Below are positions 57,973 through 61,124 of a DNA stretch of 64,000 nucleotides, piece by piece; position 1 is the first letter of the stretch; every line of letters starts with the position of its first letter. A program made the translations under genes and the position numbers. This stretch comes from an uncultured Flavobacteriaceae bacterium (GTDB lineage: Bacteria; Bacteroidota; Bacteroidia; Flavobacteriales; Flavobacteriaceae). The DNA lies in assembly GCA_964453045.1 (NCBI GenBank), contig CAYVNR010000006.1:83747-147746 (forward strand), given 5' to 3'. Below the pieces are notes generated by a model, which did not search any database, had not been told where the DNA came from, and saw only the letters and a program-made list of their open reading frames with translations.

Positions 57973-59586
57973 ATGAAAAATGTTTATGGATACATTCGTG
58001 TATCAACTACCGAACAAGTTACTGGTGCTTCACTCCCGGAACAAAAGAGCGCCATTGAAGAGTATGCAAAAAAGAACAGCCTTACCGTCATACACTTCTA
58101 TGAAGAATCCAAAACTGCAGCGAAAAAAGGACGTCCGTTGTTTTTGGAAATGATCAAAAACCTCAAAAAAGGAAAAGCCAAAGGTGTCATTATGCATAAG
58201 ATCGATAGAAGCGCAAGAAATCTACATGACTGGGCATTGGTTGGTGACTTAATCGATAGTGGAATTGATGTTTTTTTTGCACACGAGAGTTTGAACATGA
58301 ACGAGCGTGGAGGAAGACTTTCTGCTGATATTCAGGCTGTGATGGCTTCCGATTATGTCAGAAACTTGAGACAAGAAATCTCAAAAGGATTATATGGTCG
58401 TTTAAAACAAGGATTCTACCCTTGGAGTGCCCCATTAGGCTACATAAATAACGGTAGTGGTGAACACAAAACAATAGACCCTGTAAATGGTAAGCTAATA
58501 AAAGAACTTTTTGAATTATACATGTCTGGAAAATATAATATAGAATCTCTTTCGAAAGAAATGGAAATCCGTGGATTAAGAAACAGAAAAGGTAATAAAG
58601 TATGTAAAAACGGTATAGTCAGAATACTGAAAAATCCATTTTACATTGGTATCATAAAAGTAAAAGGACAATTCTTTAACGGCAAACACGAACCTATCCT
58701 TGAGACCAAATTATTCGAACGTATTCAAAAAATTCTGAGAGAAAGGAACAAAGGGAAATCGTTAAAGCATAGTTACCTTTTTAGAAAATTAGTAAAATGC
58801 CACAATTGCAATTATACAATGTCTGGTGAAATCCAGAAAGGTCATATCTATTATCGATGTAAAACTAGAAAATGTAGAACCAAATGCGTTCGTGAAGATA
58901 TACTGGAAAATTACGTCATTAAGCTATTAAAAACTCTTAAATTATACAATACAGAAGTAAAACAGCTGACCAAAATAATTGAAGATGAAAAAGGAAATGC
59001 CTTAAAAGTTCAAAGCCAAATTTTGAAAGAATACAATCTCAAAATCTCACAAATAAATGAAAAAGAACAAAGGCTCTTAGATGCGTATTTAGAAAAGGTA
59101 ATTACCAAAGAAGAATATACAAAGCAAAAAGAATTTATGCTCATAAAAATAAAAGAACTTCAAGAAAAAAAAGAAAAGATTAATACAGATAAAAAAGAAA
59201 TATTTAAGCAGATATCAAGTTTTGTCGAACTCTGTAAAACCCCTGTAAAATACTATAAATTAGCAAATCAAGATGAAAAGCGAGAAATGCTAGAAATAAT
59301 AAGTTCGAACCTTAGAATTGATGGTCGAAGAGCCTTATTTACAATGGTTTCTCCTTATTCCGATCTCTCATTTAGGAGTATTTCTTCATCATGTGGTGTT
59401 AATCAAGAGACCAGCCGAACAATGAACCGCATAATTGTCTATTCGGATAAAAATACCTCCCCCATCATGCCCAAACCTATGAACGCGAAACAGATTAAAG
59501 AGTTCTATCACTTCTTGTATGGATGTTCTGAGTCACTATCCAAGATAGTTTTGACTCAAGAGCACTTCAATACTGTTGATAGCTAG
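57973..59586 (+). CDS. Large serine recombinase (integrase 2)
   Basis: YGYIRVS, KIDRSARN, Zn ribbon (CHNC...C....C), coiled coil. Confidence 0.94.
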   Translation: MKNVYGYIRVSTTEQVTGASLPEQKSAIEEYAKKNSLTVIHFYEESKTAAKKGRPLFLEMIKNLKKGKAKGVIMHKIDRSARNLHDWALVGDLIDSGIDVFFAHESLNMNERGGRLSADIQAVMASDYVRNLRQEISKGLYGRLKQGFYPWSAPLGYINNGSGEHKTIDPVNGKLIKELFELYMSGKYNIESLSKEMEIRGLRNRKGNKVCKNGIVRILKNPFYIGIIKVKGQFFNGKHEPILETKLFERIQKILRERNKGKSLKHSYLFRKLVKCHNCNYTMSGEIQKGHIYYRCKTRKCRTKCVREDILENYVIKLLKTLKLYNTEVKQLTKIIEDEKGNALKVQSQILKEYNLKISQINEKEQRLLDAYLEKVITKEEYTKQKEFMLIKIKELQEKKEKINTDKKEIFKQISSFVELCKTPVKYYKLANQDEKREMLEIISSNLRIDGRRALFTMVSPYSDLSFRSISSSCGVNQETSRTMNRIIVYSDKNTSPIMPKPMNAKQIKEFYHFLYGCSESLSKIVLTQEHFNTVDS

Positions 59587-59648
59587 TTTCTTTTCTCGGT
59601 AAATAGTGTTTGCATTAAGGGATTATCCACTTATAACGCAAACACACC

Positions 59649-59957
59649 ATGTATACACACCACCACCATAATCAACAAGGCAACCTAATCTTCCGTACCG
59701 GGACAGATAAAAAGGGGTACTCTTGCGAAGTGTACGAACACATTCCATCACCCCAAGAGATCCACTATGCCAAACACCTCAAGACAGAACCTCTTGAGTT
59801 TATTACAGAACTTATGCCAACCAATTCATACTGTGAACAGATATTGGCATCTGAAAAGCTTACCAACCTCGTTAGCCTGATGAACAAGATTAGTGCAAGG
59901 TTAACATCAGAGGAGAATGATGGGCAAGGAGAACCTAAGCAGATGCAGCTATTTTAA
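59649..59957 (+). CDS. 102-aa protein with C-terminal QxxLF motif (copy 1)
   Basis: Ends EPKQMQLF*; lies inside repeat unit 1. Confidence 0.7.
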   Translation: MYTHHHHNQQGNLIFRTGTDKKGYSCEVYEHIPSPQEIHYAKHLKTEPLEFITELMPTNSYCEQILASEKLTNLVSLMNKISARLTSEENDGQGEPKQMQLF

Positions 59958-59987
59958 TGGTTCCATAACAACATCTATCTGACATGG

Positions 59988-59996
59988 TTATCCACA
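59988..59996 (+). promoter_or_regulatory. DnaA-box consensus TTATCCACA (also 60751-60759; one-mismatch boxes at 59623 and 60386)
   Basis: Exact 9-mer match to the established DnaA box. Confidence 0.45.
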
Positions 59997-60135
59997 TAAC
60001 ATGATAGATAAAGTCGAACTTTCTGAAGACGTTACGGCATAACAAATGAGCCAATTTAACCAAAGAATACTGGATTATCCTTGTATATCAACGTAATACA
60101 AAAACCGCTGAAAACATTAGCGATTTTTGTAAAAA

Positions 60136-60151
60136 TTGTCCATATGGACAA
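60136..60151. promoter_or_regulatory. Perfect 16-bp palindrome TTGTCCATATGGACAA (also 60899-60914)
   Basis: Ends 3 bp before each unit junction; near-identical to 62186-62201. Confidence 0.65.
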
Positions 60152-60411
60152 GTTTGTGGTGTTAATCAAGAGACCAGCCGAACAATGAACCGCATAATTG
60201 TCTATTCGGATAAAAATACCTCCCCCATCATGCCCAAACCTATGAACGCGAAACAGATTAAAGAGTTCTATCACTTCTTGTATGGATGTTCTGAGTCACT
60301 ATCCAAGATAGTTTTGACTCAAGAGCACTTCAATACTGTTGATAGCTAGTTTCTTTTCTCGGTAAATAGTGTTTGCATTAAGGGATTATCCACTTATAAC
60401 GCAAACACACC

Positions 60412-60720
60412 ATGTATACACACCACCACCATAATCAACAAGGCAACCTAATCTTCCGTACCGGGACAGATAAAAAGGGGTACTCTTGCGAAGTGTACGA
60501 ACACATTCCATCACCCCAAGAGATCCACTATGCCAAACACCTCAAGACAGAACCTCTTGAGTTTATTACAGAACTTATGCCAACCAATTCATACTGTGAA
60601 CAGATATTGGCATCTGAAAAGCTTACCAACCTCGTTAGCCTGATGAACAAGATTAGTGCAAGGTTAACATCAGAGGAGAATGATGGGCAAGGAGAACCTA
60701 AGCAGATGCAGCTATTTTAA
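60412..60720 (+). CDS. 102-aa protein (copy 2, identical)
   Basis: Identical translation; lies inside repeat unit 2. Confidence 0.7.
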   Translation: MYTHHHHNQQGNLIFRTGTDKKGYSCEVYEHIPSPQEIHYAKHLKTEPLEFITELMPTNSYCEQILASEKLTNLVSLMNKISARLTSEENDGQGEPKQMQLF

Positions 60721-60917
60721 TGGTTCCATAACAACATCTATCTGACATGGTTATCCACATAACATGATAGATAAAGTCGAACTTTCTGAAGACGTTACGG
60801 CATAACAAATGAGCCAATTTAACCAAAGAATACTGGATTATCCTTGTATATCAACGTAATACAAAAACCGCTGAAAACATTAGCGATTTTTGTAAAAATT
60901 GTCCATATGGACAAGTT

Positions 60918-61124
60918 TGTGGTGTTAATCAAGAGACCAGCCGAACTATGAACCGCATAATTGTCTATTCGGACAAGAATACCTCTCCCATTATTCCTAA
61001 GCCAATGAATGAGGAGCAGATCAAAGCATTCTATCATTTTCTCTACAGATGCTCTGAATCTTTATTATTAATTAATTCTCTCCAAAATCTCTATGAACTA
61101 CCAACAGACAACCCAAATACCTAA
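60918..61124 (+). pseudogene. Diverged orphan 3' tail of a serine recombinase
   Basis: CGVNQETSRTMNRIIVYSDKNTSPIIPKPMNEEQIKAFYHFLYRCSESL..., 44/49 aa identical to the integrase 2 tail with about 18 synonymous changes. Confidence 0.8.

Follow-up and report, generated by a model that had tools for sequence, protein, structure and literature searches.

The window analysed here is a stretch of 64,000 nucleotides (nt) from the genome of an uncultured Flavobacteriaceae bacterium (contig CAYVNR010000006.1). Its subject is integrase 2, a recombinase whose gene ends within a tandem of two 763-bp units, and the satellite elements that these units appear to represent. The evidence throughout is comparative and computational. 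The 537-aa open reading frame (ORF) of the integrase lies at 57973-59586, and the locus contains the following features, in window coordinates.

57973-59391, plus strand: conserved core of integrase 2, codons 1-473, with the catalytic, recombinase and zinc-ribbon/coiled-coil domains
59392-59447, plus strand: attachment (att) core, copy 1 (TGTGGTGTTAATCAAGAGACCAGCCGAAC...), junction between the 5′ part of the integrase gene (int5′) and unit 1; P-type, mimics the 3′ end of an antisense tRNA
59392-60154, plus strand: unit 1, 763 bp, with tail A, ORF102 and a conserved right end; read here as an integrase-less satellite
59392-59586, plus strand: tail A, a replacement C-terminus of 64 aa (..NTVDS-stop), fused in frame to the integrase
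59649-59957, plus strand: ORF102, signature gene of the satellite type, C-terminal ..KQMQLF; remote homologues P0123-P0125
59958-60154, plus strand: conserved unit right end, with a palindrome at 60136-60151 and a probable outward promoter across the junction (judged from sequence only)
60155-60917, plus strand: unit 2, the same as unit 1; tail A 60155-60349, ORF102 60412-60720, palindrome 60899-60914
60918-61124, plus strand: resident tail B (..YELPTDNPNT-stop), displaced from the integrase; 58-aa ORF from the ATG at 60948; overlaps rep
61093-61590, plus strand: Rep_O-like replication initiator gene (rep); Pfam PF04492, PHROG 'replication initiation O-like'

The two units are 100% identical end to end, and no further copy of the 763-bp unit is found in the 3.6-Mb genome, which is assembled in 50 contigs. 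The third copy consists of a tail only. It matches the unit in 55 of the first 56 nt and then in 66 of 91 nt, so that the att core shows 55/56 nt identity across the three copies with an abrupt fall beyond it. All three copies open at codon 474 (TGT, Cys) of the integrase ORF. At the protein level tails A and B are identical in 44 of 49 aa, with 20 synonymous and 6 non-synonymous differences between them, and the ratio of non-synonymous to synonymous substitution rates (dN/dS) is 0.03. Thus the satellite tail has been kept functional, and the substitution pattern points to strong purifying selection on satellite tails. The last nucleotide of tail B is 61124, so that it shares 32 nt with the rep gene, which starts at 61093. 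A sequence-only reading made earlier on the same DNA had noted that every unit starts inside the integrase frame and that two units are identical, and both statements hold over the full lengths given here. Its description of the third copy is also accurate as to the nt and aa identities and the overlap with rep, while its figure of about 18 silent changes becomes 20 synonymous differences on counting.

Each unit contains tail A, the 102-aa ORF102 and the palindrome TTGTCCATATGGACAA, which ends 3 nt short of the next junction; a near-copy of this palindrome is found at 62186-62201, 5′ of a helix-turn-helix (HTH) gene. The tail and ORF102 are the only ORFs of the unit and neither has a Pfam or PHROG match. 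Thus the 763-bp unit has no recombinase gene of its own. An identical att core is found at either end of the unit, and its left edge is the crossover codon of the integrase family described below. The unit-to-unit junction, 60154/60155, represents the intact attP of the satellite and has the same sequence as the joint of an excised circle.

Integrase 2 is a large serine recombinase. It displays the PF00239 resolvase catalytic domain at residues 4-147 (E 2.7e-26), with the motif YIRVSTTEQ that holds the serine nucleophile, and it also has PF07508 and PF13408 matches, which correspond to the recombinase and zinc-ribbon domains. In the AlphaFold2 (AF2) model long helices at residues 326-373 and 379-403 lie between the zinc-ribbon strands and form an inserted coiled coil. 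The folded core stops at about residues 466-473, residues 470-486 are disordered, and the tail is modelled as a short strand and two helices. Thus codon 474 falls at the start of a linker. Homologues of integrase 2 with 40-63% identity are found in many phyla; they are 530-545 aa in length and the alignment continues through the tail, which is therefore a native part of the family. For the same reason the possibility that the tail is a separate gene wrongly fused to the integrase was dropped. No close homologue is present in genomes of the same genus or order, where the best match has 31% identity, and no right flank conserved at the DNA level was found in these genomes. Phage collections gave no match to the family and plasmid collections gave one distant match; the family belongs essentially to chromosomal islands.

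About 160 related loci, taken from both genomes and metagenomes, were compared; their sources include Bacteroidota, Acidobacteriota, Alphaproteobacteria and Patescibacteria. Codon 474 was projected on each locus, and the 300 nt to either side of it (-300 to +300) served as the query against the DNA that follows. In all, 129 non-redundant loci extend for at least 1.5 kb downstream, and 33 of them show direct repeats with a left edge no more than 6 nt from the projected codon. Counted by matches, the left edge is at the projected codon in 43 of 48, and in none does it fall inside the 300 nt of integrase core. The repeats bracket one to four integrase-less units of 529 bp to 6.8 kb; they reach rightward for 30 to 900 bp and are tail-like or tRNA-like. 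A left edge that is fixed, together with a right extent that varies, shows site-specific recombination at codon 474, and this codon is where crossover takes place in a large serine recombinase family of wide distribution. The position of the crossover was located from shared bases and mismatches in two loci, L192 and L097, and not from dyad symmetry. The recombination partners share only TGTGCCC in L192 and GGTGCCCC in L097; since so few bases are common to them, the crossover lies within the first 8 nt or so. Two other origins of the repeats were considered and dropped. A target-site duplication does not fit, as the repeats have diverged, and a remnant of a tandem dimer of whole elements does not fit, as the unit right end is not integrase sequence.

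Genes for tRNAs are the integration targets of the family. In eight loci a minus-strand tRNA begins exactly at the projected codon 474: tRNA-Lys (L056), tRNA-Ala (L075, L087 and L108), tRNA-Glu (L083 and L102), tRNA-Arg (L097) and tRNA-Ile (L118). The integrase C-terminus in these loci is encoded by the antisense tRNA, e.g., ..GDPTENRTPICRMKTCCPNH-stop, and P0053 (479 aa), one of two seemingly truncated homologues, is the tRNA-fused case of L108. Twenty loci have a tRNA downstream, and in all of them the nearest is encoded on the minus strand. A complete split element is present in L097, where a P-type core with its tail is found at 3625-3791 and the int5′/tRNA-Arg fusion at 11408, 7.8 kb further on. 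In 11 unsplit loci the tail immediately after int5′ is a match to the L097 tail peptide. Thus, from the eight tRNA-abutting loci and the split L097 element, the family integrates at tRNA 3′ ends by a crossover inside its own ORF. The known targets across the family are the tRNA genes for Lys, Ala, Glu, Arg, Ile and Leu. Six of the eight int5′-tRNA fusions (L056, L075, L083, L087, L097 and L102) come from Patescibacteria (candidate phyla radiation, CPR) or unclassified metagenome-assembled genomes (MAGs), and L097 suggests that entire elements may be of only about 7.8 kb.

The conserved linker motif of the integrases (G/C-x-P..R-x-x-x-R-T) is a translated mimic of the antisense acceptor and T-arm. 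The site in the integrase gene is thus the element's own attP, which mimics the 3′ end of an antisense tRNA in a family that targets tRNAs, a point that the sequence-only reading had missed. The mimicry is not exact in length. The element-borne cores of L097 and L192 have 6 nt more than a real tRNA between the edge motif and TCGAAC, and in all att copies of the window the distance from the edge to CGAAC likewise exceeds that of a real tRNA by 6 nt, which makes them P-type. The attP and attB half-sites of serine integrases are known to differ in motif spacing, and the 6-nt excess of the P-type cores seems to resemble this difference.

Unit-free forms of the locus are found in five Flavobacteriia-type elements, which show the order integrase, tail and rep with the same 32-nt overlap between tail and rep. 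They are one element represented by three metagenome contigs (L019-L021), two MAGs (L025 and L027), Mesoflavibacter (L026) and Polaribacter (L034). The tail directly after int5′ in these alleles is of the tail B type. These alleles bear out the earlier proposal that integrase, tail and rep formed the native operon. The proposal that excision would swap the integrase C-terminus is likewise sound, as int5′ would then be in frame with tail B. Unit-borne tails, i.e., tail A and that of locus L022, have a common short form with a 4-aa gap, and resident tails have a common long form, ..ELPTDNPNT, that overlaps rep.

Relatives carry different cargo at codon 474, and each insert has its own diverged tail. 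The L022 unit has a Lactamase_B protein and a 234-aa protein; a Patiriisocius MAG (L028:11987-14660) has, in a 3.5-kb unit, a complete pair of the cyclic-oligonucleotide-based anti-phage signalling system (CBASS), an SMODS/AGS_C cyclase and a SAVED effector; L039 has a 1.1-kb unit, and Saprospiraceae units bear their own rep. Further cargo includes a ResIII helicase, Fic, Ser/Thr kinases, NYN, a KAP NTPase, SIR2, Mrr, a methylase, DUF4238 and IS transposases. Much of the cargo after codon ~474 looks like anti-phage defence, and it lies on either strand. The loci L061 and L173 form an empty/occupied pair that is collinear on both sides of a 1449-bp unit. Repeats in L112 are 100% identical, and L095 and L096 hold three to four copies. 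The search for alleles with none, one or several units, which had been suggested from the sequence, thus finds relatives with no unit and with one to four; a near-identical allele with another unit number is not present among them, the nearest pairs being 82-90% identical. As a separate observation, L063 has two full integrases of the family (2308-3699 and 8854-10260) in the same orientation and 6.5 kb apart, which looks like a tandem array of complete elements and not of integrase-less units.

Important is the presence of a related unit at a tRNA gene. ORF102 belongs to no Pfam or PHROG family, shows no homologue by word index, and gives a poor AF2 model (pTM 0.27). A full HMMER search with ORF102 detected three remote homologues, P0123-P0125, and P0123 is inside the L192 unit. 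The order in L192 is host genes, a terminator, a tail-like sequence, a 160-aa gene, the ORF102 homologue, the right end and tRNA-Leu(gag). The tail-like sequence has 52-57% aa identity to tails A and B, and the right ends of the window unit, L022 and L192 are homologous over about 150 nt. No integrase is found beside the L192 unit in 5.2 kb upstream or 0.6 kb downstream. A unit that resides at tRNA-Leu without an integrase is thus probably a mobile satellite that relies on an integrase in trans. On this comparison the unit family would therefore represent small integrative elements that lack an integrase and normally target a tRNA. With the varied cargo at the same codon, L192 upholds the earlier suggestion of a minimal satellite that parasitises the integrase. 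Two features of the ORF102 protein should be noted. ORF102 (both copies in the window), P0124 and P0125 end in Q-x-x-L-F (KQMQLF, KQNPLF and QQGKLF), an end shared with two of the three remote homologues that resembles a beta-clamp-binding motif. The conserved core motifs of ORF102 and its homologues are HIPS/T..E(L/I), EP..FI..L and EEQLLAS.

The unit right ends display a palindrome near the junction, and the same half-sites are found again about 45 nt inside the tail coding sequence. Both copies covary by lineage; Flavobacteriia have TTGTC..GACAA, and TTGCC..GGCAA is found in Saprospiraceae and others. A TTGACA-like or TAnnTTTG-like box directed into the repeat is present in some of the right ends. 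We infer from these motifs a putative outward promoter, regulated by an HTH protein, at the unit right end. A circularised unit would then constitute a small operon, and once the unit is integrated the promoter would drive the displaced tail-rep genes. A second (G/T/C)TCGAACTTT block is present in the unit right end about 125 nt before the junction (60010-60025 in the window, ~6350 in L192 and ~9600 in L022), and looks like a relic of an older att core.

The island that carries integrase 2 is about 58 kb and its ends are the two halves of ssb. The ssb 3′ half is at window position 20129-20311 beside integrase 1, a 494-aa serine recombinase on the minus strand (20117-21762). The 5′ half is on contig C15 (1149-1298), in a segment (536-1313) where its neighbours are an 87-aa HTH gene and an entire copy of ssb. 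Thus ssb was interrupted by the island, which brings a replacement copy of the gene. Neither the remainder of contig C6, which holds the window, nor the start of C15 has a tRNA. With ssb halves at its ends and no flanking tRNA, the island is taken to have integrated via integrase 1, and this is the reason that the integrase 2 site is unsplit here. Integrase 1 reads outward over its junction, as the integrase 2 family does.

Taken together, the units are quite probably integrase-less satellites that use the att site of integrase 2, supply it with a replacement tail, and were gathered at a tRNA and then co-excised with the island. In this family the att site lies within the integrase ORF, with the crossover at codon 474, the start of the flexible linker before the ~64-aa tail. 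The DNA just past the crossover mimics the 3′ end of an antisense tRNA, and the elements integrate at tRNA 3′ ends. On integration the integrase core comes to read into the antisense tRNA, and the tail moves to the far end of the element. A satellite consists of a P-type att core, a functional tail copy, ORF102, and a right end with an operator-like palindrome and the probable outward promoter. Satellites would integrate beside the tRNA with the integrase provided in trans, and the integrase core would become fused to the satellite tail. For the window, the island would first have resided at a tRNA as int5′/tRNA. Satellites would then have entered successively at the tRNA-proximal junction to give int5′/unit/unit/tRNA. 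Recombination between the outermost sites would have released the island and satellites as one circle, and the joint of such a circle, right-end/tail B-rep, is exactly the third junction of the window. Later the island would have reintegrated in ssb via integrase 1, with the satellites kept inside the unsplit integrase 2 site. Release of the units by integrase 2, as circles of 763 bp or 1526 bp, could still take place and would restore int5′-tail B.

Several points weigh against this interpretation. No consistent strong centre of dyad symmetry is present around the junction, and a weak recurrence at +17 to +21 corresponds to the T-arm mimic. None of the 46 tRNAs of the window genome could be recognised as the attB of integrase 2, the best match of 17/30 being noise. 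The unsplit form is the rule in chromosomal contigs of Flavobacteriia, which requires these islands to have entered by another route, and such a route is seen only for the window. The excising unit may be the 9-kb conserved module around integrase 2 instead of the whole 58-kb island. It should also be noted that accretion and co-excision, with their order of events, are inferred, as are the activity of integrase 2, the promoter, and any function of the tail or of ORF102.

The 763-bp circle, or a 1526-bp dimer, may instead have recombined directly with the att site inside the intact integrase gene of a resident island, as the sequence-only reading had proposed. The satellite part of that proposal stands, and the direct entry appears possible but less likely. 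The end structure would equal that produced by accretion, and Flavobacteriia and Saprospiraceae often have insertions at the unsplit site (L022, L028, L039, L030, L036, L038 and L112). The left arms all differ, being integrase coding sequence, a palindrome end or a host flank, so that the left half-site seems to be of little importance. However direct integration requires a recombinase that accepts two P-type sites, since all window sites are P-type and insertion into the gene would be P x P. All partner sites have the P-type spacing, and it is established that large serine integrases of the canonical kind do not pair one P site with another, although the Ccr, TnpX and TndX recombinases tolerate similar sites. 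Accretion at a tRNA with co-excision would avoid this problem, offers the simplest history consistent with serine-integrase rules, and for this reason is considered the more likely route.

Four sources are conceivable for the second identical copy: another round of integration, a dimeric circle, unequal crossing-over, or the assembler. If one satellite was acquired site-specifically, the second could have arisen later and without the integrase, when the near-identical 56-nt cores underwent unequal homologous crossing-over or when replication slipped between them. The complete identity of the units indicates a recent event, and the 55/56-nt core identity between tails A and B offers a substrate. 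However 56 nt is short for RecA-dependent exchange, and a site-specific route to the same product exists, from which the sequence cannot separate this one; we consider such a duplication possible but not probable. Somewhat unlikely is that the chromosome has a single unit and that the second copy results from the assembler traversing a loop, perhaps formed by reads of an excised 763-bp circle. Two exact tandem copies of 763 bp cannot be counted from short reads, the joint of a circle and the joint of a tandem are the same in sequence, and the assembly is in many contigs. The unit-to-unit junction must occur in the reads, yet excised 763-bp circles would yield an identical junction. Tandem or multiple units are, however, common in relatives, as in the L112, L095 and L096 arrays, and the window sequence itself appears to say nothing against two copies. 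It is very improbable that no mobile element was involved and that the integrase 3′ end was duplicated locally and then diverged, or that the structure is a regulatory copy-number switch such as the earlier reading had offered as an alternative: each repeat does bear an operator-like palindrome that is also present at the HTH gene, but different cargo is found at codon 474 in independent lineages, another genome has a homologous unit at a tRNA, tail A falls with the unit-borne L022 tail and not with resident tail B, and nothing found supports a switch.

The satellite arrangement can be compared with known systems. Cis-mobilisable elements (CIMEs) are att-bounded and integrase-less, and in the accretion-mobilisation of integrative and conjugative elements (ICEs) of the ICESt3 type they are found in tandem with an integrase-bearing element and are co-excised with it as a composite. 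The integrase-less att-bounded elements in tandem with a helper at its target are the same here. However the CIME/ICE integrases are tyrosine recombinases with att sites outside of the integrase gene, whereas the present system has a large serine recombinase with the att site in its ORF and a replacement C-terminus supplied by the satellite. The integrons have a similar layout, with a recombinase gene beside an array of small recombinase-less cassettes, many of which have defence genes. They differ in having a tyrosine recombinase, a single-stranded folded attC, an attI outside of intI, and promoterless cassettes expressed from Pc, none of which is found here; the present loci have a serine recombinase, tail or tRNA-like direct repeats, and cargo on either strand.

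The staphylococcal cassette chromosome elements (SCC/SCCmec) use Ccr serine recombinases and form tandem SCC-like cassettes at rlmH that are rich in anti-phage defence (PMC11470126). They share with the present system large serine recombinases, a gene 3′-end target that is kept open, tandem cassettes some of which are without recombinase genes, and defence cargo. The SCC target is the housekeeping gene rlmH, whereas here the targets are tRNA genes and not the rlmH 3′ end: the primary target is a tRNA 3′ end, it is the recombinase gene's own 3′ end that is replaced, and the gene is on a mobile island. The archaeal SSV-type, or 'suicidal', tyrosine integrases are called exclusive to archaea in a 2021 review (PMC8371274). 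They likewise have the att site within the integrase gene, a tRNA target and a gene that is partitioned on integration, and in the present family the att site is inside the recombinase gene and the gene is partitioned when integrated, as displayed by the eight tRNA-abutting loci and L097. However the SSV-type enzyme is a tyrosine recombinase and the split destroys it, whereas integrase 2, which has serine recombinase domains only and no SSV-type tyrosine recombinase, is bacterial and loses only a linker-attached tail. Unlike the SSV-type enzyme, it regains a tail from whatever integrates beside it. In tycheposons successive integrations at one tRNA push older elements inward and partial tRNA repeats separate the cargo; most are tyrosine-based and a minority have large serine recombinases (10.1101/2020.12.28.424599). 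The portion of that report drawn on here does not describe an att site inside the integrase ORF or mini-satellites that bear tails.

The literature searched holds no description of a serine recombinase with an in-ORF att site and tail-carrying mini-satellites, and none of the compared systems joins a bacterial serine recombinase, an in-ORF tail-swapping att site and such mini-satellites. We tentatively suggest, with low confidence, that the in-gene att site serves as both a state switch and a landing pad. The recombinase would have its tail in the free circle, would end in a short antisense-tRNA peptide when at a tRNA, and would have its tail restored by a satellite, and satellites would keep a functional tail as a means to control the helper. 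The system would then be a serine cassette-array functionally parallel to integrons that gathers defence genes on mobile islands in many bacterial phyla, and a bacterial counterpart of the self-partitioning integrases. If this is correct, bacterial serine recombinases with an att site in their own gene are split on integration, an arrangement that the review cited above limits to archaea (PMC8371274), and satellites of 0.5-0.8 kb must supply part of a helper protein. The family would offer a clean system to ask whether the C-terminal tail of a large serine integrase functions in directionality, stability or regulation. The predictable cargo hot spot right after codon ~474, across many phyla, would aid the discovery of defence systems and would be useful for predicting attP/attB pairs of new serine integrases.

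Integrase 2 is part of a 9-kb conserved module (54025-63145) that encodes a 164-aa and a 176-aa protein, a Dam methylase, RadC, an ATPase similar to type IV coupling proteins (T4CP) and HerA, integrase 2, rep, an HTH protein and a 170-aa protein. No terminal repeats of this module were found. The features outside of the integrase-rep segment are as follows.

54025-57902, minus strand: left half of the module, with the 164-aa and 176-aa proteins, Dam-type methylase, RadC and T4CP/HerA-like ATPase
57753-57902, plus strand: 49-aa ORF in the left half of the module
62186-62201, no strand assigned: third palindrome copy (TTGTCCGTATGGACAA), upstream of the HTH gene
62299-63145, plus strand: HTH_3 regulator (62299-62643) and conserved 170-aa protein (62633-63145), the end of the module

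The 170-aa protein is without a Pfam match, and by eye it displays RuvC/RNase-H-like motifs (LALYPN..GFGYAV and IVIEDY). In many phyla its gene accompanies that of the recombinase family, and lies either downstream of the latter or upstream in divergent orientation. The island cargo at 25418-47789 includes two Rhs-type toxin loci, TPR and Por_Secre_tail proteins, and ORFs of 2163 aa and 1251 aa. Beyond the window, contig C6 has a C5-methylase-like gene and other defence-like genes.

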